Part shown: in pieces, positions 10,055 through 37,012 of the stretch
How the letters are laid out: each line of letters opens with the position of its first letter
How positions within the stretch are numbered: position 1 is the stretch's first letter
NCBI GenBank assembly: GCA_003223135.1
Contig: QHXX01000018.1
Coordinates: forward strand, 65,904 to 129,903
Length of the DNA: 64,000 bases
Source of the DNA: Acidobacteriota bacterium
Lineage (GTDB): Bacteria > Acidobacteriota > Polarisedimenticolia > Gp22-AA2
Reading direction: 5' to 3'
Translations under genes and position numbers: made by a program
The notes under the pieces: generated by a model
Told to the model about the DNA's origin: nothing
Seen by the model: only the letters and a program-made list of their open reading frames with translations
Databases searched by the model: none

Positions 10055-10648
10055 CTACAGGAGATCGAGGACGCACAGATGGTCGTAGAAGGCGTCGAAG
10101 TTTTGCTGGCCGGCGTCGGGGAACAGGGTCATCAGCTGTCCGTAGACCTGGTGCAGCTTGCGGCTGCTGCTCTTGAGGTACGTCCCGCGTGAGCGGTAGA
10201 CATCGCGGTTGTCCTTGCCCGCCGCGCCGACGGAGAGCGCCTGGTTCCAGGTCTCGAAGTAGGCGCGCTGGTCGCGGATGGCGTCGACCAGCAGCCGCTG
10301 CACCTCCCGCAGCCGCTCGGGGGCCGGCAGGCCGTCCAGGATCGCGATGAGTGAATCGACGCGGTCGCGGTACTCCTGCACCGACTTCCCCCTGCGCCCC
10401 TCGGACTGGAACCATGTCCAGGCCTGCATTTTCTCGACGATCGCGAGGTCGACGAGCTCGAACAGGCGCGACAGGTAGGCCGCCTCCTCCCGGCTGAAGC
10501 CCCTGGAGGTCGGGTCGAGGGTGGCGTGGCGGTGCTGCATCTCCCGGTAGGCCTCCTCGACGGTCATCGCCTGCACGGGCACGAGGGCCGAGAGGGCCAC
10601 GAAGGCGGCAAGAAGGGGGGCGCGCGCGCGGTCAATCCAGGTCCGCAT
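10055..10648 (-). CDS. Hypothetical secreted protein
   Basis: N-terminal signal peptide (LLAAFVALSALVPVQA), no recognisable domain. Overlaps the stop of the upstream TPR-like gene, suggesting co-transcription. Confidence 0.45.
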   Translation of the reverse strand: MRTWIDRARAPLLAAFVALSALVPVQAMTVEEAYREMQHRHATLDPTSRGFSREEAAYLSRLFELVDLAIVEKMQAWTWFQSEGRRGKSVQEYRDRVDSLIAILDGLPAPERLREVQRLLVDAIRDQRAYFETWNQALSVGAAGKDNRDVYRSRGTYLKSSSRKLHQVYGQLMTLFPDAGQQNFDAFYDHLCVLDLL

Positions 10649-12443: not shown

Positions 12444-12576
12444 CCCTGCGAATCTAGGGCCCGGAGATCCGGCCGCGCAAGGCCGAATTCGGCGCGGGAC
12501 GAGGCTTACAGGAACGTCATCGCGACCCGTGCGGAGGGTTCCGGCGACACGCGGGTCGGACGGAGGACGACCCGGG

Positions 12577-13915
12577 CTAACGCCCCGGCACGCCCGCCGG
12601 CAGCGTCTGACCGATGAAGGCCTCGAGGTTGTCGAGGGCGCGACGGACGAGGAGGGCCTTCTTCTGTCTCTTGTCGCGGGTGTCGCGGTCGAGCGGCGGC
12701 AGGAGCCCAAAGGCGATGTTGGTCGGCTGGTAGTGAGCCGCGTCGGCGCAGGAGATGTACCGCGAAAGAGCCCCGAGGGCCGTCGTCGCCGGGAAGATCA
12801 AGGGTGGCTGGGTTTCCGCCAGGCGCGCCGCGTTGATGCCGGCGATGAGGCCGGAGGCGGCCGACTCGAGATACCCCTCGACACCGGAGATCTGGCCGGC
12901 AAAGAACAGGTCCCGCCGGCGACGGGCCTGGAAGGTCGGCAGGAGGATGGCCGGCGCGTTGATGTACGAGTTGCGGTGCACCTGGCCGAGGCGCGGAAAT
13001 TCCGCGCGCTCGAGGCCGGGGATCATCCGGAACACCCGGATCTGCTCGGCGAACTTGAGATGATTCTGGAAGCCGACCATCGAGTAGAAGTCGGCCGCCA
13101 GGTTGTCCTGCCGGAGTTGCACGACGGCGAACGGCTGTTTGCCTGTGCGAGGGTCGACGAGGCCGACCGGCTTCATCGGGCCGAATGCGAGCGTCTCACG
13201 GCCACGGCGGGCCATCTCCTCGATCGGCAGGCACCCCTCGAAGTAGAAGATCTCCTTCTCGAACTCGTGCGTCGGCGCCTCGGCCGCCCCCAGGAGGGCT
13301 TGGTGGAAGCGGTCGTACTCGGTCTCGGTGAGAGGGCAGTTGAGGTAATCCTCGCCCCCCTTGCCGTAGCGCGATGCCCGGAACACCTTCGACAGGTCGA
13401 TCGTGTCGGCATCCACGATGGGCGAGATCGCGTCGAAGAAGTAGAGGTATTCGCGTCCTGTGAAGCGGGCGATCGCGGACGCTATCGCCTCGCTGGCCAG
13501 GGGGCCAGTGCAAAGGACGCACGGCCCCTCGTCCGGGATCGCCCGGGCCTCTTCGCGCAGGACGCGCACCTGCGGGAGCGACTCAATCGCCTCGGTGACG
13601 CCGCGGGCGAAACGCTCGCGGTCGACCGCCAGAGCCCCGCCGGCGGGCACCCGGCACGCGTCGGCCACACGGATGATGAGCGAGTCGCAACGGCGCATCT
13701 CCTCCTTCAGGAGACCGGACGCCGTGTCAAGGAGGTTCGACTTCAGTGAGTTCGAGCAGACCAGCTCGGCCAGGTCGCCCGTCGCGTGGACCGGGGTCGT
13801 CCGAACCGGCCGCATCTCATGCAGATCGACGCGCAGGCCCCGGCGCGCCGCCTGCCAGGCGGCCTCCGACCCGGCCAAGCCGCCGCCGATGATGATGACG
13901 CGTGTTGTGGCCACG
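12577..13915 (-). CDS. trmFO: Methylenetetrahydrofolate--tRNA-(uracil-5-)-methyltransferase TrmFO
   Basis: FAD-binding TRVIIIGGGLAGSEAAWQAARRG, ELVCSNSLKSN, GQISGVEGYLESAASGLIAGINAA; start GTG (VATTRVIIIGGG). Confidence 0.85.
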
Positions 13916-19499: not shown

Positions 19500-22388
19500 G
19501 TGACCTCGTCCGTCCTGCCGTCCGCGCGATCGTCGCACCATGCCGGGGCCTTCGTGCTTTGCGCCGCACTGCTCGGGATCGCGACCGTCCTGGGACTGGA
19601 GCGCTCACAGAATCGACCGAGGAGTTCACCGCCTTCGCCTGCCGGAGCGGATTACGATGAGGCCGTCCGACTCTATGTCGCCGGTCACTTCCAGGAGGCG
19701 CTCGAGGCGATCAACCGCGCGTCCGCTGCGGATGGATGGAGCGCTGCGCTGCGCGCGCTCGCCGGCTGGTGTCGTCTTCGGGCCGGCGCTCTGGCTGCGG
19801 CAGAGGCCGAGTTCCGCGCGGCGCTGAAGCTGGACGCGGGCGCCGTCGATCCACACGTGGGGCTGGGATACGTGCTGCTGCGCCGCGGTTCGTCGACGGA
19901 GGCGGAAGACCAGTTTCGTTTCGCCCTGCGCCGCGACGCCTCGAATCTCGACGCGCAGAAGGGGCTCGGTCTCGCGCTGCGTGACCAGAAGAAGTACTCT
20001 GACGCGACGCAGGCGTTTCGCGACGCGCTTCGCCTCAAGCCGGGCGATGCCGAGGCCGAGGGATTGCTGCAACAGGCGCTGGCCGCGGGAGACGGCGGCC
20101 GGGAGGAGCGGCCGCGCGGCCCGGCGACCGGCACGGCGATAAGGGTCGTCGCCCAGGCCAGGGACGGCAGGTTCTTCGTCCGGGAAGGCGGGCGCTTCCG
20201 GCCGCTGTTCGTGAAGGGAGTCAACATGGGGGTGGCGCTGCCGGGCCGCTTCCCCGCGGAATTCCCACCGGACGAGGCGACGTACCGCTCCTTCCTCTCG
20301 GCCATCGCCGGGATGGGCGCCAACGCGGTTCGCCTCTATACCCTTCTGCCCCCTTCGTTCTACGCAGCGCTGCGCCGGCACAACGACGCGGCCCGGTCGG
20401 CACCGCTCTGGCTCCTGCAGGGGATATGGACCGAGCCGCCGGCAGGCGATGACTACGACGGCGACGTGTTCGTCCGGCAATTCCGAGGCGAGATCCGGCG
20501 GGTCATCGACGCGGTGCACGGCAATCTCGACCTCGAGGCGCGGCCGGGTCATGCTTCGGGCATGTACCGGGCCGATATTTCGCCGCATGTCCTCGGTTAC
20601 ATTCTGGGCCGGGAGTGGGAGCCGCTGTCGGTTCGAACCTATGACGGCTGGTTCGCCAAAGGGCACAGAGAATCGTTCGCGGGTGCGTATTTCACGGCGC
20701 GCCTCGAGGATGGCGCCACGCCGTTCGAGCAGTGGCTGGCCCGGACCATGGACTTCGCCGTCGAATACGAGACCGGGGACTACCGCCAGCAGCGCCCGAT
20801 CTCGTTCGTCAACTGGCCCACGCTCGACCCGCTGCGACATCCGACCGAATCGACGGCCCCCGAGGAGGGAGCCTTCCTGCGCGCGATGGGCGAGGAGGAG
20901 ACGGCCGAGATGATCGAGGAGTACGGTGAGTGCGAGGATTGTGTCGGGGTGGACGCAGCGCGCATCGTCCCGACGCCCGACGCGCGGGGCGGTATCTTCG
21001 CGACCTACCACGCTTATCCTTATTACCCCGACTTCATGAATCTCGACCCCGGCTACAGCAGGGCGCGCGACTCGAAGGGTCCGAGCAACTTCATCGGGTA
21101 CCTGCGAGATCTCAAGACCCACCACGGCGCCCAGCCGGTGCTCATCGGCGAGACCGGGGTTCCGAGCAGCCGCGGCATTGCGCATCTCCAGCCTCAGGGG
21201 TGGAACCACGGCGGCCACACCGAGCGCGCGCAGGGGGAGATCGATGCCCGGCTGATGATGGATATCGACGAGGCGGGCCTGGCGGGCGGGGTGTTATTCG
21301 CCCTCCTCGACGAGTGGTTCAAGAGGAACTGGATGGTGTTCGATTTCGAAGTGCCGGCCGAGCGCAAGCCCCTCTGGCTCAATGTCCTCGACCCCGAAGA
21401 GAACTACGGTCTTCTGGCTGCGCGGCCGGGTGCCACGAGTTGGAAGGTGAAAGTCGACGGACGGGCGGAGGACTGGAACGGTGTGGCGCCGTTGGTGACA
21501 CGGCCCGAGGGCGGGCCGGAACGGCCGTTCAAGGACGGCTACGACCGGGCCCGCACGCTGCGAGGACTGGCGGTGACGTCGGACGAAGCCTACCTCTATA
21601 TCCGCCTCGATGTGGACCGGCTCGACGCCGACGGCGACGGCGCCCCCGACTGGGGAAAGGTGGCCTACCTCATCGGCATCGACACCTACGATGCACGGCG
21701 GGGGGATCACAGGTTGCCCATCACCGACAAGGCCGTCTCTCCCGCGGGCCTGGAGTTCTGCCTCGTCCTGGATGGCGCCGCCACGTCGAGACTCCTCGTC
21801 GATACCCCTTACGACCTCCAGACAAAGCGCCATCACCGTCCCTACGGTTCGGTCGAGAACGCCGACGGCCGCTTCATGGAGATCAAGGTCGAGACGAACC
21901 GCAGGCGCGTCGGACGCGACGGCACCGTCTACCCTGCCCAGCAGTCGAGCCGCTCACAGCTCATCCACGGCTCGATGGACCGGCGCGACCGGGACAGTTC
22001 GACGCTGACCGACTGGGCCGCCCGGACCGACTCGAACACCATCGAGATCCGCCTCGGCTGGGGGCTCCTGAACGTCACCGACCCGTCCTCCCGCTCTGTC
22101 CTGAGCGACGATCCGGACAATCTGAAGAACGTCGGCTGCACAAGAACCGCCGGCTTCCGCTTCTACGCCGCGGCGATCAAACCCGAAGGCGCCGCCGGAG
22201 GCCGGACGCCGATCGAGGCCCGGCTCGCCGATCGGCTGCCGCCGGGCGACCTCGCGCAACCGTCCGACCTGCCGATGTACGCCTGGCGCGGCTGGGACGA
22301 GCCGACGTACCACATCGAGAAGAAGGAGGGCTGGAGTATCTTGAAGCGGGCCTTCGAGGCGCTGCCGGCACACCGGGAGGCACCGTGA
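19500..22388 (+). CDS. TPR-repeat protein fused to a TIM-barrel glycoside-hydrolase-like domain (clan GH-A-like); putative EPS hydrolase
   Basis: N-terminal hydrophobic segment + ~4 TPRs. Then FVKGVNMGVALPG (GH5-like beta1), AGMGANAVRLY (like GFNxVR), GREWEP (possible acid/base), VLIGETGVPS (GExG nucleophile-like). Lies immediately upstream of the PgaA-like exporter. Confidence 0.55.
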   Translation: MTSSVLPSARSSHHAGAFVLCAALLGIATVLGLERSQNRPRSSPPSPAGADYDEAVRLYVAGHFQEALEAINRASAADGWSAALRALAGWCRLRAGALAAAEAEFRAALKLDAGAVDPHVGLGYVLLRRGSSTEAEDQFRFALRRDASNLDAQKGLGLALRDQKKYSDATQAFRDALRLKPGDAEAEGLLQQALAAGDGGREERPRGPATGTAIRVVAQARDGRFFVREGGRFRPLFVKGVNMGVALPGRFPAEFPPDEATYRSFLSAIAGMGANAVRLYTLLPPSFYAALRRHNDAARSAPLWLLQGIWTEPPAGDDYDGDVFVRQFRGEIRRVIDAVHGNLDLEARPGHASGMYRADISPHVLGYILGREWEPLSVRTYDGWFAKGHRESFAGAYFTARLEDGATPFEQWLARTMDFAVEYETGDYRQQRPISFVNWPTLDPLRHPTESTAPEEGAFLRAMGEEETAEMIEEYGECEDCVGVDAARIVPTPDARGGIFATYHAYPYYPDFMNLDPGYSRARDSKGPSNFIGYLRDLKTHHGAQPVLIGETGVPSSRGIAHLQPQGWNHGGHTERAQGEIDARLMMDIDEAGLAGGVLFALLDEWFKRNWMVFDFEVPAERKPLWLNVLDPEENYGLLAARPGATSWKVKVDGRAEDWNGVAPLVTRPEGGPERPFKDGYDRARTLRGLAVTSDEAYLYIRLDVDRLDADGDGAPDWGKVAYLIGIDTYDARRGDHRLPITDKAVSPAGLEFCLVLDGAATSRLLVDTPYDLQTKRHHRPYGSVENADGRFMEIKVETNRRRVGRDGTVYPAQQSSRSQLIHGSMDRRDRDSSTLTDWAARTDSNTIEIRLGWGLLNVTDPSSRSVLSDDPDNLKNVGCTRTAGFRFYAAAIKPEGAAGGRTPIEARLADRLPPGDLAQPSDLPMYAWRGWDEPTYHIEKKEGWSILKRAFEALPAHREAP

Positions 22389-24121
22389 GCCGCAGCCGGC
22401 GTCTGGTCGCGATCGTTGCCGTCGGCCTCGCCGTGTTCGCCGCTGCGGTCCTTCCGGCGGGGGCGGCGCCCCCGGCCGCCCGGGAGCGGGACACAACGCA
22501 GACGCCCGCTTCGGGCGCTCCGGTCGGGCGGCCGGTGGCCGACATCGTGAAGGAGGCGGACGCCGCCTTCGCGCGGGAGGACTTCAAGCAGGCGAAGGTC
22601 CTCTACGAGGAGGCGGCTCGCCTCGAGCCCGGCCACGTCCGCGCCCTGCATCGCCTCGCCCTCCTGCAGTCGTGGGACGGAGAACTCCGGGCGTCGGCCG
22701 ACAACTACCGCCGCGCCCTGGCTTTGGCGCCGGACGACTTCGACATAGAGCTCGGTCTCGCCCGGGTGCTGTCGTGGACGCACGAGTTCGGGGAGGCGTG
22801 CGTTCTCTACAGGAAGCTGCGCGAGAAACACCCGGACGACGCGCGCGTCCTCCTCGGTCTCGGAAACACACTGTCGTGGGCGGGCCGCTACGCCGAGGCC
22901 GACGAGGTCTTCAATGACATGGAGGCCCGCAAGATCGAGCCGATCCAGGCGCACGCCGGCCGGGCGCGCCTGCGCGGCTGGCAGGGGAAGCTCGACGAGG
23001 CGGCGCACTTCTGGCGCGACGTGCTGCGCGCGGATCCCGGCAACCTCGAGGCACGCATCGGTCTGGCGTACGTGCACCACTGGCAGGGACTCGATCGCAC
23101 GGCGCGCGAGCAGGCCGACAACATCGTCATCGACCACCCGGAGAGCAAGGAGGCGCGGGAGTTGAAGGAGGCGGTGCGGAAGGGACTGCGGCCGCACGCG
23201 GACGCGGACGCGTTCCGCTACAGCGACACCGACTCCAACCGGGTGGATGGCGGCACGGCGTCGTACACCTTCATGGCCGAGCCGCAGACCTCGATCAGGA
23301 TCGCCTACTCGACCTACGACGCGACGTTCCGCTGCGAGGACGCGCAGTTCTGCGATGAGCCGGGCCTCGCCGTCGGAGATGAGATCGACACGCGCGCGCA
23401 GGTCCTGACCGGTGCTTTGACGTCGCGCGTGATCTCCCCGCTGACCTTCAACGCCCGTCTGGGCGCGGTGCGGGAGGGGACCTTCGGCGGGGACACGCGC
23501 GTCGTCGGGGTCCTCGGCGGCTACCTCCGCTGGCAGGTCGGCCCGAGGTTCGCCCTCGGCACGAACGGCGGCCGGGACGTGTTCCTCGACACCGCCCCCC
23601 TCATCGACCGCGGCATCCGCATCACGGACGCCAATGCCCGCGTGGAGTTCCGTTTCAACCCGGCCTGGCTGCTCTCGGGCAGCGCCGGGGCGGCGTCGTT
23701 TTCCGACGGCAACGCGCGCCGCACGGCCGGGGCTGCGATCGAATGGCGTCTGCCGACGACGCACCCGTGGATCGCGGGCACGGTCGACGTCCGATACCGG
23801 TCGTTCAACGCCGACGAGGACAACGGCTACTTCGACCCGCGGCGCTACGACTCGGAGCTCCTGACCCTGGCGGTCTGGGACGACTACCGTGACGGCCTGC
23901 TCTACTGGAGGCTCGAGGGCACGTATGGACGGCAAGCCTTCACCGTCGGCGCGGTGAAACGCGACGACGCGGTGAGCGGCGGGTCCGTCCTCGCGGGCGT
24001 CAACTTCGCGCAGGGCAGGGCAGCTCTCGAGGCTTCGTACGCCCGCAGCGACTACGCGCTCAATGTCGCGCAGGGATTCACGTACAGCCGGACAGGGTTT
24101 TCCCTGCGGTTCCGGTTCTGA
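22385..24121 (+). CDS. PgaA/BcsC/PelB-like outer-membrane exporter: N-terminal TPR domain + C-terminal beta-barrel
   Basis: GTG start overlaps upstream stop (GTGA). Signal peptide LVAIVAVGLAVFAAAVLPAGA, TPRs, C-terminal alternating hydrophobic beta-strands ending ...FSLRFRF (terminal Phe). Confidence 0.55.
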   Translation: MSRSRRLVAIVAVGLAVFAAAVLPAGAAPPAARERDTTQTPASGAPVGRPVADIVKEADAAFAREDFKQAKVLYEEAARLEPGHVRALHRLALLQSWDGELRASADNYRRALALAPDDFDIELGLARVLSWTHEFGEACVLYRKLREKHPDDARVLLGLGNTLSWAGRYAEADEVFNDMEARKIEPIQAHAGRARLRGWQGKLDEAAHFWRDVLRADPGNLEARIGLAYVHHWQGLDRTAREQADNIVIDHPESKEARELKEAVRKGLRPHADADAFRYSDTDSNRVDGGTASYTFMAEPQTSIRIAYSTYDATFRCEDAQFCDEPGLAVGDEIDTRAQVLTGALTSRVISPLTFNARLGAVREGTFGGDTRVVGVLGGYLRWQVGPRFALGTNGGRDVFLDTAPLIDRGIRITDANARVEFRFNPAWLLSGSAGAASFSDGNARRTAGAAIEWRLPTTHPWIAGTVDVRYRSFNADEDNGYFDPRRYDSELLTLAVWDDYRDGLLYWRLEGTYGRQAFTVGAVKRDDAVSGGSVLAGVNFAQGRAALEASYARSDYALNVAQGFTYSRTGFSLRFRF

Positions 24122-24155
24122 GGCGCGGTTCTTTGCTCGCGCCGCGCAGCGAGGG

Positions 24156-24545
24156 GTGACGGCCGTGGCGGAGCAGGCCCGAATCCTGATCGCGGACGGC
24201 GACGCGCCCGTGCGACGCTTCGTGGCCGCGCTTCTCGTCCACGGAGGATACGAGGTGCATGAGGCCGCGGACGGCGAGTCGGCGCTTCAAAAGGCGGTGT
24301 CGCTCGCGCCGCGACTGCTGGTCCTGGACATCGTGCTGCCGGGGAAGGACGGTTTCGAGGTCATCAACTCGCTCAAGTCGAACCCGGCGACCTCCCGCCT
24401 GCCGATTCTGGTGCTGTCGGTGAAGGATCGCGAGGAGGATGTGGTGAAGGCGCTCGACCTCGGCGCCGAGGACTACGTCATCAAGCCGTTCAGCCCCCGC
24501 GAGCTCCAGGCGCGCATCCGCAAGATTCTCGAAAGGAGCCGGTGA
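24156..24545 (+). CDS. Stand-alone response-regulator receiver (REC, CheY-like) protein
   Basis: ILIADGD, phospho-acceptor context LLVLDIVLPGKDGFEV, LPILVLSVKD, AEDYVIKPF; no output domain. The ORF track starts at 24063, which overlaps the upstream gene. Confidence 0.75.
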   Translation: MTAVAEQARILIADGDAPVRRFVAALLVHGGYEVHEAADGESALQKAVSLAPRLLVLDIVLPGKDGFEVINSLKSNPATSRLPILVLSVKDREEDVVKALDLGAEDYVIKPFSPRELQARIRKILERSR

Positions 24546-24549
24546 CGCC

Positions 24550-25824
24550 GTGGATCCGGTGCGCCTTCTGATGGTCGAGGTGGTCGAGGGAGTCGGGGTC
24601 TTCCTCGCCCTTCTCACCTTTGCGATCGTCATCAACAAGGCGCTCCGCGAGGTGGGCGAGGCCCTCGACAGACACCGGCGCACGCTCATCGAGCCGGCCG
24701 TCTTCGAGTACCTCGGCGCCGCGTCCTCCAGGCCGCAGCGCGACGCCCTCCCGCGATCGTCGTCGCGCCGCGACCGGCGCCTGGTGGAGGAGTTCCTTCT
24801 CGAGGCGGCGCGCGTCGTGAAGGGGGAAACGCGCGACCGGGTGACCGCCGCCTTCGAGGCGCTCGGCTCGGTGCGCGAGGCGATCCGCGCTCTGCACAGC
24901 CGCCGCTGGTGGAAGCGCGCCGAGGCAGCCGAGAGGCTCGGGCTGATGCGAAGCCGCACGGCCGTCGCGCCGCTCGTGGCCCTGATGAGCGATCCGGAGG
25001 CGGAGGTGCGCATCCGCGCGGCCCGCGCCCTGGGTCTCGTTCGCGGAAGCACGTCGATCAGACCGCTCGTATCGGCCCTCGCGGACCCGAGCCGCTGGTC
25101 GGCGATCCGCGTCGCCGAGATTCTGATCAACGTCGGCGTCGAGGCGGTGGACGAGCTCCTCGTGGCCTATGAGACGTTGCCGCTTAACGCCCGAGTCTCC
25201 GCCCTCGACGTTCTGGGGCGCATCCGGAGTCTCAGGGCTGTCGGGCTGATGAAACAGTGTCTTTCGGACGCACACCCGGACATCCGGGCTCGCGCGGCGC
25301 ACGGGCTCGGCCTCATCGGCGATCCTGGCACCGCCCCCGACCTGATTCGCGCCCTCCGGGACACGGAGTGGCCGCCGCGCGCGATGGCGGCCAAATCGCT
25401 CGGCCGCCTCCGAGACCCTGCAGCCATAGGACCGCTGCGCGAGTCGATGAGGGACCGGCAGTGGTGGGTGCGTTACAACTCCGGCGAGGCGCTCCGGGCC
25501 CTCGGCCCCGAAGGTCTGGAGGCGCTGATCGACATGTTGAGCTCCGACGATCCGTACGCCCGTCACATGGCGGTGGCGCAGCTCGAAGAAGGCCGGGTCA
25601 TCGACCACTTTGTCGCGGACCTGACCTCGAACGACGCCGGCAAGCGCGCCGCGGCGATCCGCTTCGTCGACAAAGTAACCGCCGCCGCCCGCATCGACGA
25701 TACGACCCGGCAGGCGGCCAGAAGCGCCCAGGAAGGCGTGCGCCACGCGCTGTCCAACATCCTGAAAACGCCGTCGCCGGCACCTGCGTCCTCACCCGGC
25801 AAGGGGGACGGAGGACGTTCGTGA
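24550..25824 (+). CDS. Membrane-anchored HEAT/PBS-lyase-like repeat protein
   Basis: One N-terminal TM helix (GVGVFLALLTFAIVI), then >=6 HEAT-like repeats (EVRIRAARALGLV, WSAIRVAEILINVG, PDIRARAAHGLGLIGDP, WPPRAMAAKSLGRLRDP, WWVRYNSGEALRALG). Confidence 0.55.
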   Translation: MDPVRLLMVEVVEGVGVFLALLTFAIVINKALREVGEALDRHRRTLIEPAVFEYLGAASSRPQRDALPRSSSRRDRRLVEEFLLEAARVVKGETRDRVTAAFEALGSVREAIRALHSRRWWKRAEAAERLGLMRSRTAVAPLVALMSDPEAEVRIRAARALGLVRGSTSIRPLVSALADPSRWSAIRVAEILINVGVEAVDELLVAYETLPLNARVSALDVLGRIRSLRAVGLMKQCLSDAHPDIRARAAHGLGLIGDPGTAPDLIRALRDTEWPPRAMAAKSLGRLRDPAAIGPLRESMRDRQWWVRYNSGEALRALGPEGLEALIDMLSSDDPYARHMAVAQLEEGRVIDHFVADLTSNDAGKRAAAIRFVDKVTAAARIDDTTRQAARSAQEGVRHALSNILKTPSPAPASSPGKGDGGRS

Positions 25825-25852
25825 CCGGTCGCCGAGCCGCCGGTGGGCCACC

Positions 25853-27295
25853 ATGACCTGGATGTCCGTCCTGATCACAATCGTCCTCGCCTTCAACCGC
25901 TGGGTGATCTTCTACTTCGGCCTCCTGAACGGCGTCTATCTCTTGCTGTTCCTGGTGTCGTTCGTGGAGGTCCTGCGCTTCGTCAAGCGGACGTTCTTCT
26001 CCGACTACGAGCAAATCTTGAAGTCGGAGATGACCTGGCCCATCTCAATGATCGTCCCCGCCTACAACGAAGCGCGCAACATCGTCGAGACCGTGCGGTC
26101 GCTTCTCGCGGTGAACTATGGTCAGTTCGAGGTCGTCGTGGTGAACGATGGGTCCAACGACGGCACGCTCGAGCGCCTCATTTCGACCTTCGAGCTGAAG
26201 CGCACCGACCGCATCTACCGCCGCACGCTGCCGACCGGTCCCGTGCGCGGCATCTACGCCTCGCTCGAACATCCGAATCTCAGCGTCGTGGACAAGGAGT
26301 GGGGCGGCAAGGCCGAGGCGCTCAACTGCGGGATCAATGTGTCGCGCTACCCCCTGTTCTGCTCGGTCGATGCCGATTCGATCATGGAGGACAATGCGCT
26401 CCTGCGAGTGGTGAAGCCGTTCATGGAGCACCCCCAGGAGATGGTCGCCGCCGGCGGTATCGTTCGCATCGTCAATGGCTGCGAGGTGCGCGAAGGCCGG
26501 GTCGTGCGCATCGGCCTGCCGAAGAAGCCCTTGCCTGTCTTCCAGGTCGTCGAATATCTGAGAGCGTTCCTGGGAGGGCGCATCGGATGGAGCAGCCTGC
26601 GGTCGCTGCTCATCATCTCTGGCGCGTTCGGTCTGTACCGCAAGTCGGTGGTGATCGCCGCCGGAGGCTACGACAGCTGGTCGGAAACCGAGGACCTCGA
26701 GCTCGTCCTGAAGCTCCACGAGCACATGCGCAGGACCGGCCGCAAGTACCGCATCGTCTTCGTCCCCGACCCCGTATGCTGGACCGAGGTCCCGTCGACC
26801 TTTCGTGTCCTGGCTCGCCAGCGCAACCGCTGGCACCGCGGCCTGCTCCAGAGCCTGTGGCGCCACAAGCACATGATCTTCAACCCCGAGTACGGCGCCA
26901 TCGGCATGCTCGGGCTGCCCTACTTTCTTGTCTTCGAGTCCCTCGGCCCCTTCATTGAAATTCTCGGCTACATCACGGTCGCGCTCTCGTATTGGCTCGG
27001 CGTCCTGAACATCGATTTCTTCGTTCTCTTCCTAATCTTCGCCGTCTTCTTCGGGGTCTTCCTGTCCGTCGCCGCCGTGCTCCTGGAGGAGGTCTCCTTC
27101 CGCCGCTATCCCGGCTGGGAACACCTCGCCAGGCTCGTCTTCTACGGTGTCCTCGAAAACTTCGGCTACCGCCAGATCCTGGCCATCTTCAAGGTGAAAG
27201 CCTTCTGGGACTTTCTGCGGCGCCGTCGCGCCTGGGGCCGGATGGAGCGCGAGGGGTTCCGGGCGGGACCGGCGTCGCCGACCCTTCGGACCTAG
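25853..27295 (+). CDS. Processive family-2 glycosyltransferase, PgaC/IcaA/HmsR-like EPS synthase
   Basis: 2 N-terminal TMs, GT-A domain (VVNDGSNDGT; DAD in SVDADS), processive motif QRNRWHRG (QxxRW), C-terminal TM cluster; ~480 aa, no PilZ domain. Confidence 0.75.
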   Translation: MTWMSVLITIVLAFNRWVIFYFGLLNGVYLLLFLVSFVEVLRFVKRTFFSDYEQILKSEMTWPISMIVPAYNEARNIVETVRSLLAVNYGQFEVVVVNDGSNDGTLERLISTFELKRTDRIYRRTLPTGPVRGIYASLEHPNLSVVDKEWGGKAEALNCGINVSRYPLFCSVDADSIMEDNALLRVVKPFMEHPQEMVAAGGIVRIVNGCEVREGRVVRIGLPKKPLPVFQVVEYLRAFLGGRIGWSSLRSLLIISGAFGLYRKSVVIAAGGYDSWSETEDLELVLKLHEHMRRTGRKYRIVFVPDPVCWTEVPSTFRVLARQRNRWHRGLLQSLWRHKHMIFNPEYGAIGMLGLPYFLVFESLGPFIEILGYITVALSYWLGVLNIDFFVLFLIFAVFFGVFLSVAAVLLEEVSFRRYPGWEHLARLVFYGVLENFGYRQILAIFKVKAFWDFLRRRRAWGRMEREGFRAGPASPTLRT

Positions 27296-31080: not shown

Positions 31081-31627
31081 CTCGTCCTATCCCTCGAGGC
31101 GGGGTCAACGGCCAGAGAGTGGCGAGGATCATATCGCCACCGGGAGGCACGGTCAAGAAAAGCCTTCCGGGACGGGTCAAAGTCCGGCCAGCCGGGCCGC
31201 ATCCGACTGCACAGACTCGCAACATGCCTCGGGCAATTCCGAACGACGGGTGGACACGTCTAGTAAAGCTATTGTTCTCATACACATAGTATATGCCATG
31301 AGCTCCCACTGACGAAAACCTGGGCAGTTGGTGTGCGAGAGCTGGTCACTCCGACGGGGGACTCGCAGAGCATCAGGCCGCACCGGACAAGATTGATCTG
31401 CCCTGATCATCCATCGCAATAATCAGGAAATGAGCTAGTTAGGAAATCATGAGCAGGCTTGTACAGGGGTGCCGGACGGGATGGCACCACCCTTGCTCTT
31501 ATTGAAGCGACCAGTCGTGAAGGCCAAACCACTCGCGAGGGTGGGACGGAAAGCCAACGGGTCTCTTGAAGACGGCCGGGTTGCCAGCTGGGCGGCTCAA
31601 ACCGCCCGCTGTCGGTCAGGAGGCGCC

Positions 31628-33631
31628 ATGTCGAGAGGGGCCCGATCAGACCGCAGCCAGGGAAATCGCCACGGGTTCTGGGGCCGCTTCGTCCGCGCCG
31701 CCACCAACGCCCTCGTCGCAGTCCTTTTTATCACGCTGTCATTCCCTTCCGCGTTCGCCGAGAAAGGGAAGAAGGCGGGAGTCGCCTCGGATCTGCGGGA
31801 AGAATTCCGGAGTGGGTCACCGTCCGACAGGGTCCGCCTGGTGGTGACCCTGAACGGCGCCGATCCAGTTTATGTCGCCAACAGGGTTTATGAACTGGGC
31901 GGCAAGGCTGGACGCCATCTCAAGAACGTCGACGAGATGGCTCTTGAGCTGCCGCTCGGGTCTGTGCCTGACTTGGCGGAAATCGAGGGACTCGAGTATA
32001 TCGCTCCTGATCGTCAAGTCACGGGTCTTGCGAGCCATATCGAGGTTACGACCGGTGCCAGTCAGGTCTATCCGGTGTCGGGCGGCACCCTCAGCACCCT
32101 TCTGTCACTGACCGGCCTCGACGGGTCGGGCGTCGCGGTAGCGATCCTGGACTCGGGAATCGACGCCGACCATTTCGACCTGAAGGACGACAAGGGCAGG
32201 CGCCATGTCGTCCTCTCGTCGGATTTCACGGGCCGCGGAGGCCTGGATGACCCGTACGGCCACGGAACCAACGTCGCCGGGCTCATCGCCGGCGACGGCA
32301 GCTCGGCGTCCACGATCGGGCGTGACTACACCGGTATCGCGCCGGGCGCGAACCTCATCAACTTCAAAGTCCTCGACGAGAATGGGCGGGGCTACGTCAG
32401 TAGCGTCGTAGCGGCCATCGACCAGGCGATCTCCCTCCGCTATTATTACAACATTAAGGTCATCAACCTCTCGCTCGCGGCCCCGCCGGTCGACTCGTAC
32501 GTCAACGATCCCATGTGCAAGGCTGTCGAGCGGGCGACCCGGGCCGGGATCGTGGTCGTGGCGGCGGCCGGAAACTTCGGCCAGGACTCGAACGGCAAGA
32601 AGGTCTATGGCGGCATCACCTCCCCCGGCATCTCGCCGTCGGCGATCACCGTCGGCGCGACGAACACACGTGGCACCGACGTCCGATCGGATGACACGGT
32701 GGCGCCCTACTCCTCCCGCGGCCCGACGCTGGCACACACGACCGACCCGGTGACCGGCCAGGTCACCTACGACAATCTGGTGAAGCCGGACCTGGTGGCG
32801 CCCGGAACCCGTCTTGTGTCGCTTGAGCGGTACGGCAATCTCCTGGTGAGCTACTACCCGGTCCTGCACGTCGACACCGGCAACAACGTCAACAACAAGA
32901 GCCGGTACATGATGTTGACCGGCACATCGATGGCGAGCGGCGTGGTCTCCGGCGCCGTGGCGCTCATGATGCAGGCGAACCCGGGCCTGACCCCCAACCA
33001 GGTGAAGGCGATCCTGATGTACTCCGCCCAGATCATGGACGGCGAGGGTCTGTTCGAGCAGGGCGCCGGAATGCTGAACATCGAGGGCGCAGTGCGACTG
33101 GCGAAGGCGGCCAACCGCTTCGCCTATGCCCTGCCCGCCGGCGCGAATTTGATGTCCCTTGGAGCGCTGCCGGCGCCGGCGCAGACGACCGTCGCAGGCG
33201 AGACCTTCGCCTGGAGCCAAGGCCTCATCTGGGGCATCGGCATGCTGCGCGGTGAAGCGATTCTCACGACGCAGCAGCTCGCCTACGCACAGTCGCTGAT
33301 CTGGGGCATCGGCAGGCTCGATTCGTGGGGCGTGGGCGTCACTTACTACGACGGCCTGTTCTCCGACTCCTACGTCGTGTTCGGCAAGGGCAACCAGTGG
33401 AACTATGTCTCCTGGACCGCCGGTACGCCGCAGTCGAGCGGCCTCATCTGGTCCGATCGCCTCTACGGCTCCGGTCTCATCTGGGCGAACCAGCTGATTT
33501 CGAACGATTTCTTCGACGTCTCGTCCACCAGCCTGATCTGGGGCATCCGCGGCTACGGCGGCTCTGACTTGAGCCTCATCTGGGGCCTGCAGGACGCCGG
33601 GCTCATCTGGGGGATCGCCAATGCCTGGTGA
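31628..33631 (+). CDS. Secreted subtilisin-like serine protease (peptidase S8) with C-terminal [GS]LIW-repeat region
   Basis: Signal peptide. Catalytic Asp (AILDSGIDADHFD), His (HGTNVAGLIAG), Asn (AAAGNFG), Ser (GTSMASGVVSGAVALM). C-terminal ~150 aa contain 7 copies of [GS]LIW(G). Confidence 0.8.
   Translation: MSRGARSDRSQGNRHGFWGRFVRAATNALVAVLFITLSFPSAFAEKGKKAGVASDLREEFRSGSPSDRVRLVVTLNGADPVYVANRVYELGGKAGRHLKNVDEMALELPLGSVPDLAEIEGLEYIAPDRQVTGLASHIEVTTGASQVYPVSGGTLSTLLSLTGLDGSGVAVAILDSGIDADHFDLKDDKGRRHVVLSSDFTGRGGLDDPYGHGTNVAGLIAGDGSSASTIGRDYTGIAPGANLINFKVLDENGRGYVSSVVAAIDQAISLRYYYNIKVINLSLAAPPVDSYVNDPMCKAVERATRAGIVVVAAAGNFGQDSNGKKVYGGITSPGISPSAITVGATNTRGTDVRSDDTVAPYSSRGPTLAHTTDPVTGQVTYDNLVKPDLVAPGTRLVSLERYGNLLVSYYPVLHVDTGNNVNNKSRYMMLTGTSMASGVVSGAVALMMQANPGLTPNQVKAILMYSAQIMDGEGLFEQGAGMLNIEGAVRLAKAANRFAYALPAGANLMSLGALPAPAQTTVAGETFAWSQGLIWGIGMLRGEAILTTQQLAYAQSLIWGIGRLDSWGVGVTYYDGLFSDSYVVFGKGNQWNYVSWTAGTPQSSGLIWSDRLYGSGLIWANQLISNDFFDVSSTSLIWGIRGYGGSDLSLIWGLQDAGLIWGIANAW
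33222..33618 (+). repeat. In-frame short coding repeat (ctcatctgggg-type, x7) encoding [GS]LIW motifs
   Basis: ggcctcatctggggcatcgg, tcgctgatctggggcatcgg, ggcctcatctggtcc, ggtctcatctgggcg, agcctgatctggggcatc, agcctcatctggggcctg, gggctcatctgggggatc. Confidence 0.7.
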
Positions 33632-33659
33632 CGCCATGGATCCCCGGAGAGACGCGGAC

Positions 33660-34373
33660 ATGAAAGGGAACGTGTTCATCGGTGCGGTGGCGGCAGTCGG
33701 GGCGGCGGTCCTGGGCCAGAGCCTCTATCACGTGGCCGCGGACGGATTCGAGGCGAAGCACCTGGCGTGGCTCGGGATCGCAGTCCTCACCCTCCTCGTC
33801 GGCCGGCTCTCCGTCAAGCTGCCGCTGCCGCACTGCCGGGTGTCGTTCGCGGACGCCTTTGTCTTTCTTTCGGTCATGGTGTTCGGCGGCGACCTGGCGA
33901 CCATGACGGCGGCTCTCGACGGTTTCGCGTCGTCCAGCCGGGGAAAGGGTACCTGGCACAAGAAGGTATTCAACACGGCCGCGATGGCGTTGTCCGTCAA
34001 CCTGGCGGCGCGCGTGTTCACCCGATTGGTTCCGCAGAATGGGCAGTGGGGCATGCACGTGACCCTCGTGGACCTGCTGTTGCCCGTGGCGGCGCTGGCC
34101 TTCACGCAGTACGTGCTCAACACGGCCCTGGTGTCCGGCGTCGTGGCGCTCAAGGAGCGCCAGTCGCTGGTGGCGATTTGGCAGGACTCCTCGCCCTGGG
34201 CCGGCACGGCGTACCTTGCCGGCTCGGTGGCGGCGGCAATCGTCTTCCTGGTCGTCCGGGAACTCGGAGTCGTGTCTGCTTTCGCAATCCTCCCGTTCCC
34301 GGCTATTCTGTACCTCACATACCGCGCCTGTCTGGACAGGCTTGTGAGGACGAAAGGGGGGATGACCCTCTAG
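33660..34373 (+). CDS. Polytopic integral membrane protein (6-7 TM), unknown function
   Basis: Hydrophobic helices throughout. N-terminus FIGAVAAVGAAVLGQS resembles the N-terminus of the downstream HD-GYP protein (LMAVAAAGAALLGTA). Confidence 0.45.
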   Translation: MKGNVFIGAVAAVGAAVLGQSLYHVAADGFEAKHLAWLGIAVLTLLVGRLSVKLPLPHCRVSFADAFVFLSVMVFGGDLATMTAALDGFASSSRGKGTWHKKVFNTAAMALSVNLAARVFTRLVPQNGQWGMHVTLVDLLLPVAALAFTQYVLNTALVSGVVALKERQSLVAIWQDSSPWAGTAYLAGSVAAAIVFLVVRELGVVSAFAILPFPAILYLTYRACLDRLVRTKGGMTL

Positions 34374-34422
34374 GCGAACCGTGTTGAGCTGATGAGCTGA
34401 CTCGCAGGCGACCCCTGCGGAT

Positions 34423-34458
34423 GCCGGCCCCGTTGGCAGCGGGGCCGGCGCTTTTTTT
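34423..34458 (+). terminator. Rho-independent terminator
   Basis: gccggccccg-ttggcag-cggggccggc hairpin (10-bp GC-rich stem) followed by gcttttttt. Confidence 0.7.
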
Positions 34459-34873
34459 GGTGGGGTGCGGCAGAGACCGCGCTCCATCGCGCGTGATGAA
34501 CTAGTCGCGTCGGAGTCGATGCGCGGAAATCGCACACGCGGGGCTCAGAGTGATGCGACCTGGACACGTCCGCAGCCGGACATCATCACTGGATCCAACA
34601 GTTGAAGAACCGTCGTCGGCCCGATGCCTGGATGTGTGTGAGGTTTGTACAGCGCGCCTCCAAATCTATTGACGGTGATCATCTTGAGCCGTCGCCACCT
34701 TTCTGGCGCCGAGGTCTAACCCTCGCTGTTCCTTCACTTGCAGGCGCCCCCCGGACGTGGTGGTGATCGGATTGGACGTGGCACGGCCGTTGCGAATAAA
34801 GGCGACAACGGCGGCGCTCTGTCCGGCTCGGCCGACAGTCACCCATCAGGGGAGCAAGAGTTTCAAGGAGACC

Positions 34874-37012
34874 ATGCGGATCAGCGGACCGGGAGGAAGG
34901 CTCTATCTCATGGCCGTCGCGGCGGCCGGCGCGGCCCTGCTGGGCACCGCGGCCGCGGCCCTGTCGCTCCTCCTGATCGGCCAGATCGGCCTCGTCTCCT
35001 GCGTGGTCGTTCCACCCATCCTGCTGCTCGCGGTCTTGGTCTACCGCTCGTACAAGAGCCAGGCTTCGGAAAACCTGAAGCGTCTGGATGACCTGATGCA
35101 GGTGCACCTGTCGACCATCGAGGCTCTGGCGCTCGCCATCGACGCCAAGGACCCGCACGCGCAGGGACACACGCGCCGGGTGCAGGCGTACGCACTCGAG
35201 CTGGCGCGGCGGCTGCGGGTCCCGCGTCAGGACTACGAAGCGGTGAGCGCGGGGGCGCTGCTGCACGACATCGGCAAGCTGGCGATCCCGGACCACCTGC
35301 TCAACAAGCCCGGCAAGCTCTCGGACATGGAGTACCAGAAAGTCAAGGCCCACCCGTCCGTGGCCGCCGACATCCTGGCGAACGTGCACTTCCCGTATCC
35401 GGTGCTGCCCGCGGTGCGACACCACCACGAGCGCTGGGACGGGTCGGGCTACCCCGACGGCCTGCGCGGAGAGGAGATCCCGCTCGCGGCCCGCATCCTC
35501 ACCGTGGCCGACTCGCTCGAGGCGCTGACCTCCGACCGGGCGTGGCGGGGACGGAAGTCACCCGAGGAGGCCTGCTCCCTCATCGAAGCGTGGTCGGGAA
35601 TCCAATTCGATCCGGCGGTGGTGACGGTGCTGCGGAAAAGCCTTTCCGAGGTGATCGGCGCGGTCAGCGCCGTTCCGGAGCCGCGCAGGAGCGATGCGGC
35701 GGACGCACGGGCGCGCCTCGAGGAGGCCCTGGCGCGTATCGATTCGACCGGAATCTGGAACGGCCCGCCCGCTTCGGACGAGGAGGATCCGGGCGGGTTT
35801 GGCGACAGTCTGCACCTCGGCATCGGCGCGGAGCGGGCGCCCGCTCCCCAGCAGGCTGGCGGCGTGCCGGGCGTCGCGTCCGCGTCGGAGACGGGGACGA
35901 GCGTCTGGCTGGAGCGGGACGCCAGCGGCGCCATCGTCGGGCGCCAGACTTCCGTCCTGGGCTCCATCTCCTCGGCGCATCGCGAGGTCTACGCGCTGTA
36001 CGAGATCGCGCAGACGCTCGGGTCATCGCTACGCCTGTCGGAGGTGCTGGATCTGGTCGCAGCGAAGATCGGCCAGCTCGTTCCTTACCGCACCTGCGTC
36101 ATTTACCTCCTGGAGGACGACCACGAGGCGCTGTCGGCGCGGTTCGCGTCCGGCGCCAACGTCGAGCACCTGCGCGGACGATCGCTGCAGGTGGGCGAGG
36201 GGATCACCGGGTGGGCGGCAAGCCAGAAGAGCAACCGTTTCTCCAGCAGCCCCGACCTCGACCTGTCGGGCACCGAAGTCGACCCCTCGGAGTACTCGAC
36301 GGTGGCGGCTTTCCCGCTCATCCAGGACGGCAAGGCGCTCGGAGTGATCACCCTCTATTTCCCGAAGGGTGTCCCGTGCCTGGACGATTACATCCGCATG
36401 ATGGACATCATCGCCAAGCTCGCGGCCGCGGCGGTCTTCAACGGCACGATGTTCGCGGAGACGCAGGAGTCGGCGCTGACGGACGTCCTGACCAACCTGC
36501 CGAACTCGCGTTACCTGCGACAGGCGTTCGAGCAGGAGAAGGTGCGCAGCCAGCAGGCCGGCCAGCCGATGGCGTTCCTGGAGGCCGACCTGGACGACTT
36601 CAAAACGATCAACGATCGATACGGCCACAATATCGGCGACCGCTACCTGTCCGAGATCAGCCGCGTCCTCAAGAGCCACCTGCGCGAGCGTGACATCCTC
36701 GTGCGTCTGTCGGGCGACGAGTTCGCCGCCCTTTTGCCGATGACCGGCTTCGCCCAGGCGGCCCTCCTGGCCGAGCGCCTGCAGCAGGCGGTCGACCTGT
36801 TCACGCTGCGCCTGGAGGAGGGAAAGGTGGCACGTTCGGGGCTGTCGATCGGCATCGCCCTCTATCCGGTGGACGGCGAGGGGTTCGAGGACCTCCTGGT
36901 GCGCGCCGACCACAACATGTATCAGAACAAGGCCGCCCGCAAGAACGCCCGCCTCGAGCGCGCCCCCAACATCCTTCCGTTCCCGATCAAGAGCCCGGGT
37001 AAGATCGGCTAG
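34874..37012 (+). CDS. Membrane-anchored HD-GYP - GAF - GGDEF(SGDEF) c-di-GMP signalling protein
   Basis: 2 N-terminal TMs. HD-GYP (HDIGKLAIPDHLLNKPGKL...HHERWDGSGYPDGL), GAF (EGITGWAASQ...LGVITLYFPK), GGDEF domain with degenerate A-site RLSGDEFAALLP and intact I-site RERD. Confidence 0.8.
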   Translation: MRISGPGGRLYLMAVAAAGAALLGTAAAALSLLLIGQIGLVSCVVVPPILLLAVLVYRSYKSQASENLKRLDDLMQVHLSTIEALALAIDAKDPHAQGHTRRVQAYALELARRLRVPRQDYEAVSAGALLHDIGKLAIPDHLLNKPGKLSDMEYQKVKAHPSVAADILANVHFPYPVLPAVRHHHERWDGSGYPDGLRGEEIPLAARILTVADSLEALTSDRAWRGRKSPEEACSLIEAWSGIQFDPAVVTVLRKSLSEVIGAVSAVPEPRRSDAADARARLEEALARIDSTGIWNGPPASDEEDPGGFGDSLHLGIGAERAPAPQQAGGVPGVASASETGTSVWLERDASGAIVGRQTSVLGSISSAHREVYALYEIAQTLGSSLRLSEVLDLVAAKIGQLVPYRTCVIYLLEDDHEALSARFASGANVEHLRGRSLQVGEGITGWAASQKSNRFSSSPDLDLSGTEVDPSEYSTVAAFPLIQDGKALGVITLYFPKGVPCLDDYIRMMDIIAKLAAAAVFNGTMFAETQESALTDVLTNLPNSRYLRQAFEQEKVRSQQAGQPMAFLEADLDDFKTINDRYGHNIGDRYLSEISRVLKSHLRERDILVRLSGDEFAALLPMTGFAQAALLAERLQQAVDLFTLRLEEGKVARSGLSIGIALYPVDGEGFEDLLVRADHNMYQNKAARKNARLERAPNILPFPIKSPGKIG

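Follow-up and report, generated by a model that had tools for sequence, protein, structure and literature searches.

A tryptophan-rich repeat extension on an AprX-like subtilase encoded behind a putative c-di-GMP riboswitch in an Acidobacteriota bacterium

The stretch of DNA analysed here (hereafter the window; 64,000 nt, contig QHXX01000018.1 of assembly GCA_003223135.1, positions 65,904 to 129,903 of the forward strand) comes from an Acidobacteriota bacterium and encodes an AprX-like protease of the S8 (subtilase) family, the C-terminal region of which carries seven short units built around Leu-Ile-Trp. The S8 protease itself is ordinary. Judged from sequence comparison, its tail is a repeat module not described before, accessory to an enzyme of known class, and one branch of a wider unannotated family; the group of proteins matched by the profile of this tail is narrow. 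The parts of the gene are as follows, with residues numbered in the 720-aa open reading frame (ORF) that ends at 33631.

31628 to 33631, + strand: gene of the S8 (AprX-like) subtilase, coding for 667 aa when read from its probable true ATG (ribosome-binding site, homologues, gene callers)
32123 to 33070, + strand: Peptidase_S8 catalytic domain, ORF residues 219-534 (PF00082)
33167 to 33313, + strand: junction module, ORF residues ~567-615, LPAPAQTTVAGETFAWSQGLIWGIGMLRGEAILTTQQLAYAQSLIWGIG, with LIW units 1 and 2 (hhalign, conservation)
33314 to 33487, + strand: lineage-specific beta-rich insert, ORF residues 616-673, with the degenerate units YVVFG and YVSWT and LIW units 3 and 4 (AlphaFold2, pattern scan, hhalign)
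33488 to 33628, + strand: Trp-rich tail, ORF residues 674-720, with LIW units 5 to 7 (SLIWGI, SLIWGL, GLIWGI) and a final W (conservation, AlphaFold2)
33221-33235, 33293-33307, 33440-33454, 33473-33487, 33530-33544, 33572-33586 and 33599-33613, + strand: the seven [GS]LIWx units (motif and DNA scan)

The [GS]LIW units begin at ORF residues 586, 610, 659, 670, 689, 703 and 712, read GLIWGIG, SLIWGIG, GLIWSD, GLIWAN, SLIWGI, SLIWGL and GLIWGI in that order, and all lie within the last ~135 residues. An earlier note on this DNA, made from its letters, had listed the same seven motifs, and they are present as it gave them (ORF 586-712) and go beyond chance: when the C-terminal 170 aa were shuffled 100,000 times with their composition preserved, seven or more LIW never occurred and the maximum was 3. 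Moreover, Trp accounts for 7.1% of these 170 aa against 0.2% of the remaining protein, and a scan for two hydrophobic residues (phi-phi) followed by an aromatic and a small residue gave nine matches in the C-terminal 170 aa against three in the other 497 aa. At the DNA level the core CTSATCTGG(KS) occurs seven times, always within 33224-33612 and nowhere else in the 64 kb, compared with 0.49 copies expected, and 0 of 100 shuffles attained seven. The earlier note took this for a short in-frame DNA repeat, a description that has to be given up. Tandem Repeats Finder, run on 33000-33700, found no tandem array, the spacing of the units is uneven (24, 49, 11, 19, 14 and 9 aa), and in this genome of 67% GC the codons CTG and CTC serve 86% of Leu, ATC 90% of Ile, and GGC and GGG 76% of Gly, so that the shared 9-11 nt follow from L-I-W-G being coded with the genome's codon bias. 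Hence the seven units are a protein motif and not a DNA repeat.

The units are also conserved. Over ~97 homologues, which are otherwise 48-96% identical, sites 1, 2, 5, 6 and 7 are 96-100% conserved (units 1 and 2 in 100%), while unit 3 is kept in 62% and unit 4 in 56%; seven phi-phi-W units are found in 49 of 98 homologues. By these comparisons the motif is under strong purifying selection. All seven recur in a protein of 96% identity that comes from an independent assembly, and because the same units are conserved in independent assemblies the repeat count, which the earlier note wished to see verified, is not an artefact of assembly. The number of units in the tail differs among homologues, from 2 to 7, and 67 of 98 end in an aromatic residue (W, F or Y), while R, L, D and E also occur at the end. 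At locus L012 the DNA of the tail includes a perfect tandem repeat, 3.5 copies of a 24-nt unit that encodes LVWGNDSG, and the regular DNIVWG arrays of the relatives described below are tandem repeats in their DNA as well; from these cases it appears that the unit expands by DNA duplication in some lineages, and that the window holds an old, diverged set. In one further sequence, the 228-aa metagenomic fragment P0022, the stretch between LIW unit 1 and the tail is missing (…WGQSLIWGFN-GYGGYDAGLIWG…), a gap seen in this sequence only, which may reflect either a deletion, in frame, between two stretches coding for LIWG or a fault of the assembly.

The seven units had been presented as a single array, and while their number stands they are not uniform: a junction pair, a pair in the beta-rich domain and a variable tail trio can be told apart. 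The junction, ~50 aa directly after the catalytic domain, has the consensus LPxPQ[ST]TIAGETFxWSQGLIWGxGxLxGxAxLTxQQxAYAQSLIWG and is predicted by AlphaFold2 to form four short beta-strands and two short helices (predicted local confidence, pLDDT, 62-89). In hhalign it matched the NIVWG-type tails with 97.4% probability (E 1.2e-11) and the hexapeptide-type tails with 98.6% probability (E 6.4e-16), and by this profile evidence it is homologous to the base of the DNIVWG tails and of the GVLIGD hexapeptide tails in related S8 peptidases. The same alignments pair SLIWGIG with both GVLIGDG and NIVWG, and they set YVVFG and YVSWT of the window protein against NIVWG units, by which the insert (pLDDT 74-91) consists of degenerate copies of that unit. 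Members of the window's clade have this ~60-aa insert after the junction and then three to seven further LIWG units. Many other S8 genes of soil metagenomes have regular DNIVWG[ST] arrays, as in L009:6974-9232 (752 aa, 17 units), P0163 has twelve perfect 17-aa repeats of AVDPNAIIWGHRSxA, and relatives of Pyrinomonadaceae type have GVLIGD hexapeptide arrays.

A close comparison is with the unannotated DNIVWG-tailed AprX-like S8 proteins (such as L009:6974-9232, P0154 and P0244, the last named 'aprX 2' and from Acidobacteriota), which share the architecture, the junction and the logic of the unit, namely a small residue or Asn, two hydrophobic residues, Trp and Gly, always C-terminal to the S8 domain. 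They differ in having 8-17 regular units with a period of 6-13 aa, Asp/Asn-rich turns and tandem repeats in the DNA, whereas in the window protein a degenerate insert of ~60 aa is followed by no more than three regular tail units; moreover, the DNIVWG examples checked have no riboswitch, and their neighbour is Acetyltransf_3. On the long contigs L009 (5001-6521 and 6974-10010) and L010 (5001-6298) such an Acetyltransf_3 (GNAT) gene follows each DNIVWG-type subtilase, with two such pairs in L009. Several of the DNIVWG-type S8 genes of L009 and L010 appear frameshifted, RRQHRLGH being the +1 reading of DNIVWGT. We propose, as an uncurated family, the phi-phi-W-G (LIWG/NIVWG) tail of AprX-like S8 peptidases, with the junction consensus P-x-[QE]-[ST]-x-[IV]-[AG]-G-E-x-x-x-W-[SG]-Q-x-[LIV]-[IV]-W and at least three [small]-phi-phi-W-[G/S/T/N] units after it; the window protein has the junction right after its S8 domain and five more units behind it. 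For the three tail types (LIWG, NIVWG and hexapeptide) no curated model covers the Trp repeats.

Searches for a described domain in this region came back empty. NCBIfam gave 0 families for the last 170 aa at E up to 1, Pfam, scanned with 16 members of the family and with E allowed to rise to 10, gave chance-level matches only, and none of the modules looked for in the C-terminal 170 aa (P_proprotein, PPC, PKD, Por_Secre_tail, PEP-CTERM, autotransporter barrel, W_rich_C, CW_binding and ChW) matched. A sequence-profile search of the PDB with the tail alignment gave only a chance-level match, to glucose-6-phosphate isomerase (E 0.025), and literature searches, on the motif strings among 8 million papers and on tryptophan-rich extensions of subtilases, found nothing relevant. 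The earlier view that the region is no P-domain, PPC, PKD, Por tail or PEP-CTERM is therefore upheld by sequence, and a match to an established model, which the note had named beforehand as evidence against its claim, was looked for in Pfam, NCBIfam and PDB sequences and none was found. The note had also proposed a profile search for other proteins with LIWG repeats. Among 1.84 billion proteins the tail profile matched only 42 representatives, and every full-length match examined was itself an S8 peptidase. A candidate that was set aside is PF26036, precomputed for some homologues: it is an N-terminal putative inhibitor or propeptide domain and was rejected as the tail domain for its location, and a literature search on it returned nothing relevant.

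The enzyme that carries the module is a complete subtilase. PF00082 matched the product of ORF 31469..33631 (+ strand, 720 aa) with E 7.4e-51 and 173.6 bits against a cut-off of 21.8, and alignment to Tk-SP, a subtilisin-like protease of Thermococcus kodakarensis, placed the catalytic set in order at D228 (DSGID), H265 (HGTNVAG), the oxyanion residue N369 (AAGNFG) and S487 (GTSMASG); with this match and all four motifs, the intact D/H/N/S subtilase of the earlier note is confirmed. The GTG at 31469 that opens the mechanical ORF is, on the sequence evidence, the wrong start and ATG 31628 the real one, because a riboswitch aptamer occupies 31513-31589 and because homologues and gene callers begin at the equivalent of ATG 31628. 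An AGGAGG at 31619-31624 precedes this ATG, and both ribosome-binding site and ATG are kept in homologues; gene callers give 667 aa for P0024, which is 96% identical to the window protein, and homologues are 650-670 aa long, with 93% of the 720-aa ORF covered. By inspection, the first ~44 aa (31628-31759) look like a Sec-type signal peptide. The metagenome-assembled genomes that hold the homologues are labelled mostly Acidobacteriota or Polarisedimenticolia, and a single-protein query for related loci returned two GTDB genomes only.

Structure prediction gives part of the extension a fold. For the full-length protein, modelled by AlphaFold2 with 99 sequences, the predicted template-modelling score (pTM) was 0.76; the S8 domain had pLDDT mostly of 80-95, and model residues 498-620 (ORF 551-673) formed a beta-rich domain with pLDDT 62-91. 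Short strands were placed on QTTV, ETFA, GLIW, GMLR, TYY, VSW, IWS and RLYG, so that the LIW triplets of unit 1 (GLIW) and unit 3 (IWS) are predicted beta-strands. A Foldseek search of the PDB with the full-length model was dominated by the catalytic domain and was uninformative on the fold of the C-terminal domain. Among the relatives, the distant hexapeptide-type P0118 reached 31.8 bits with Pfam Hexapep (gathering score 27) and matched many acyltransferases of the left-handed beta-helix (LbH) class; P0163 reached 21.5 bits against 30 with the grass antifreeze beta-roll, which is sub-threshold; and the L009 array matched the beta-helix of PL3 pectate lyases at E~0.07. These hints of a beta-helix or beta-roll in the arrays are weak if consistent, leads rather than tests. 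Hexapep LbH (PF00132) stands at the C-terminus of Pyrinomonadaceae-type S8 relatives, which share the junction with the window protein and whose GVLIGD aligns with SLIWGI, whereas the window protein has no Hexapep match at any threshold, carries Trp at the position for which the helix core requires L, I or V, and is not spaced in hexamers. The XXNXVXG roll of grass ice-binding proteins (PF21300) fits (S/D)DNIVWG by inspection and is the model behind the sub-threshold P0163 match, with none for the window protein. Such short-repeat rolls, PF21300 and the GGxGxDxUx units of RTX in serralysin-type proteases, resemble the tail in their very short, Gly-containing strand and turn units, stacked either behind the C-terminus of an enzyme domain or apart from one; the window tail differs from RTX in having no GGxGxD by inspection and no RTX model match, and since the window protein bears an N-terminal Sec-like signal peptide, again by inspection, it would not be a substrate of a type I secretion system.

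The 5′ leader of the gene contains a candidate regulatory element.

31513 to 31589, + strand: riboswitch aptamer of the c-di-GMP-I clan, in the 5′ leader of the protease gene (Rfam RF01051)

The aptamer scored 54.6 bits with RF01051 (clan CL00126, gathering score 35) and 58.4 with the GGC variant RF03167 (gathering score 59), and is borderline between the two models. It falls within codons 1 to 53 of the mechanical ORF and ends 39 nt 5′ of ATG 31628. An aptamer also precedes the homologous gene in L001, L002, L005, L006, L011 and L012 (53-65 bits), which makes seven loci with the window, and it was not found before the S8 gene in the more distant L007, nor in the other tail types examined. The leader RNA folds with a z-score of -0.56, which is not significant, and has no clear expression platform; a hairpin at 31591-31608 has no U-tract. 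We infer that expression of the protease is set by c-di-GMP through this putative riboswitch. A literature search on c-di-GMP riboswitches together with subtilisin found nothing relevant. In Clostridioides difficile the gene of the secreted protease Zmp1/PPEP-1, an M34 metalloprotease, lies behind a c-di-GMP riboswitch. The window resembles that system in having a secreted protease directly behind such a riboswitch, which by analogy would imply a role in attachment or release, and differs from it in protease class (S8 and not M34), phylum and riboswitch variant.

Downstream and upstream of the protease gene are the following features.

33660 to 34373, + strand: polytopic membrane protein, 237 aa, weakly MASE9-like (synteny; Pfam MASE9)
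34422 to 34460, + strand: intrinsic terminator-like hairpin, 13 bp with 10 GC and a run of seven T (consensus scan)
34757 to 37012, + strand: HD-GYP/GAF/GGDEF protein of c-di-GMP turnover, its true start probably inside the ORF (Pfam)
19500 to 27295, + strand: exopolysaccharide (EPS)-type cluster, upstream and on the same strand as the protease gene (Pfam)

The membrane gene lies immediately 3′ of the S8 gene in L001, L002/L003, L004, L005, L006, L011 and L012, that is, in eight of the nine LIWG-type loci examined, with the window included, and an alternative start of it, ATG 33621, overlaps the S8 stop codon; it is probably co-transcribed with the protease gene. In L007 the tail is kept and the membrane gene is missing. 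The hairpin at 34422-34460, which looks like a strong terminator, would end a transcription unit of riboswitch, S8 protease and membrane protein. The membrane protein matched Pfam MASE9 below threshold (E 0.0029), and its L012 homologue carries the precomputed label 'MASE9 (weak)'; invariant residues include C72, D78, R107, K114, N118, Y164, N167, R213 and R235, and across six homologues no His is invariant. The next gene encodes HD_5 (1.2e-40), GAF_2 (1.4e-11) and GGDEF (2.1e-41) domains by Pfam and is syntenic in L001, L002, L006, L007 and L011. MASE9-HD-GYP-GAF-GGDEF is a described architecture (bioRxiv 10.1101/2021.11.05.467447), and because of it, of the weak MASE9 match and of the HD-GYP/GAF/GGDEF gene lying next, the membrane protein may be a detached sensor module of that gene rather than a sortase. 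The HD-GYP/GAF/GGDEF protein could both make and degrade c-di-GMP, and its synteny with a riboswitch-controlled protease suggests a local feedback module. In the upstream cluster, two ORFs with tetratricopeptide repeats (TPR; 19500-22388 and 20930-24121) overlap in different frames, the second with a weak match to the PgaA beta-barrel, and may represent a frameshift or two genes; they are followed by a HEAT-repeat protein (24550-25824) and a glycosyltransferase family 2 (GT2) synthase with a Chitin_synth_2-like region (25853-27295). This TPR/PgaA-like, HEAT and GT2 cluster is syntenic in L002, L006 and L007. L001 and L006, both from GCA_040961615.1, have the same synteny of accD, riboswitch, S8 gene, membrane protein and HD-GYP/GGDEF, but their S8 proteins are only ~60-76% identical to the window's, which suggests either that a segment was duplicated or that the bin mixes two related genomes. 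Elsewhere in the window, Pfam at E up to 1e-4 matched nothing in a 692-aa ORF at 10632-12710 (- strand).

As to function, our tentative reading, to which we give a little less than an even chance, is that the C-terminal ~170 aa form a non-catalytic beta-strand and turn repeat module that stabilises and tethers the secreted protease. The extension would consist of diverged copies of one strand-plus-turn unit (small, hydrophobic, hydrophobic, Trp, Gly), in which the alternating small residue and Ile would point inward, to the core of a beta-sheet or of a solenoid-like fold, and Leu and Trp would line one exposed face. The resulting aromatic strip would stabilise the protease and hold the enzyme on the cell envelope, the exopolysaccharide matrix or an insoluble substrate, and riboswitch control would give it a place in the sessile-to-motile switch, as a protease associated with the matrix or a surface. 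Binding to a surface or matrix gains probability because the tail is conserved, uncatalogued, shared by a wider family and placed behind a c-di-GMP riboswitch, and of the three functional ideas of the earlier note a novel binding module seems to stay the most plausible. A more specific version, which we think rather unlikely, would make the units (LIWG in the window, DNIVWG in relatives) an undescribed short-period beta-roll or solenoid with an exposed Trp ladder, serving as the adhesion module of a large and so far uncatalogued family of subtilases secreted by soil bacteria and here tethering a riboswitch-controlled protease to the matrix of the synthase cluster. Several points weigh against the tethering module. 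The structure prediction that the earlier note proposed for the C-terminus produced the beta-rich fold of ORF 551-673, but the last 47 aa, which carry the most regular units (5 to 7), had pLDDT below 50, and AlphaFold2 on the C-terminal 170 aa alone (19 sequences) gave an unusable model of pLDDT 35. Since the spacing in the window protein is uneven, a regular solenoid over the whole region is unlikely, and the beta-helix and beta-roll similarities of the Trp-containing arrays all fall under curated thresholds. The proposed link to exopolysaccharide comes from the gene neighbourhood alone, and binding of the tail to any partner is likewise suggested by sequence and context.

The extension could instead have a structural role only, like the P-domain of kexin and furin or the beta-jelly roll of Tk-SP, as an obligatory folding or stability domain seated on the catalytic domain, with the Trp residues in a core or interface and no ligand. 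In favour of this, ORF 551-673 is compact, beta-rich and contiguous with the catalytic domain in the model of pTM 0.76, the junction is kept across three S8 lineages whatever comes after it, and Tk-SP (PDB 3AFG, 9UES), which among solved structures is closest to the catalytic domain (E 4e-36, ~29-32% identity), also has a C-terminal beta domain. Tk-SP has a jelly-roll domain and a removable C-propeptide. It and the window protein are alike in their N-propeptide, S8 domain and beta-rich C-terminal extension; past the catalytic domain, however, there is no sequence similarity, and Tk-SP is without short Trp-rich repeats. The Foldseek alignment to 3afg is about as long as propeptide plus catalytic domain, and from this length and the TM-score the jelly roll seems unaligned; P_proprotein and PPC models do not match the sequence, and the conserved tail units of variable number and the arrays of 12-17 units in relatives would be left unexplained. 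We regard a purely structural role as unlikely. A C-terminal propeptide would be another explanation, with LIW|G as a repeated autoprocessing site (aromatic P1, small P1′) at which the extension is trimmed stepwise during maturation or release. Many subtilases, Tk-SP and aqualysin included, shed an extension at the C-terminus, and large hydrophobic residues are tolerated by subtilisins at P1; a tail predicted to be flexible and a Trp-Gly junction common to the LIWG and NIVWG types would suit such trimming. However, seven to 17 copies are needless for a cleavage site, the hexapeptide-type relatives have Ile or Val at the Trp position, and units 1-4 lie in the predicted folded domain, units 1 and 3 on strands, where they would be inaccessible. 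The conserved small and hydrophobic residues on the flanks suit a structural repeat better, and stepwise trimming is in our view quite unlikely.

A sorting, secretion or anchoring signal, which the earlier note had also considered, would be read by the co-transcribed membrane protein or would act in outer-membrane insertion through the C-terminal aromatic residue. The membrane gene in eight of nine LIWG-type loci and the aromatic residue that ends 67 of the 98 homologues would agree with it, but the idea has lost ground and is very unlikely. The tail has neither the transmembrane helix nor the basic cluster of PEP-CTERM, LPXTG and GlyGly-CTERM signals, its terminal residue is not fixed, L007 has the tail without the membrane gene, and the NIVWG and hexapeptide types are without that neighbour. 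The membrane protein, having no invariant His, has no Cys/His/Arg triad and resembles instead, if weakly, a MASE9 sensor next to an HD-GYP-GAF-GGDEF gene. A sorting pair of exosortase, rhombosortase or CPBP type was rejected on the missing transmembrane and basic cluster of the tail and the missing invariant His. An outer-membrane beta-signal or small barrel was rejected too, the terminal residue being variable, the pattern not amphipathic and no barrel predicted by AlphaFold2. There is next to no chance that the units are an artefact, either a misassembled or slipped DNA repeat or a chance recurrence in GC-rich sequence: the superficial 11-nt identity is all that speaks for this, and it is refuted by the lack of a tandem repeat, by codon bias, by the shuffles and by the same sites in ~97 homologues and independent assemblies.

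If the extension were merely a stabilising domain, its description would be routine domain annotation. If the Trp-ladder solenoid were true, it would be a new short-repeat architecture, of interest for protein design and for carbohydrate or surface binding. Together with the DNIVWG and hexapeptide tails, the extension is a module that recurs among subtilases and for which Pfam and NCBIfam hold no model and no structure is solved; a family model would give an annotation to some hundreds of proteins from metagenomes, if not more (~90 LIWG-type and ~100 NIVWG-type clusters). With the putative riboswitch, a serine protease would join the few enzymes whose genes are known to lie directly behind a c-di-GMP aptamer. 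In soil Acidobacteriota, secreted subtilases rank among the chief enzymes of protein degradation, and to our knowledge what keeps them near the cell or the substrate is largely unknown. The conserved riboswitch offers a concrete regulatory hypothesis for this uncultured lineage and makes the function of the tail testable, and if the adhesion reading is true the module would link the level of a second messenger to matrix proteolysis in Acidobacteriota.

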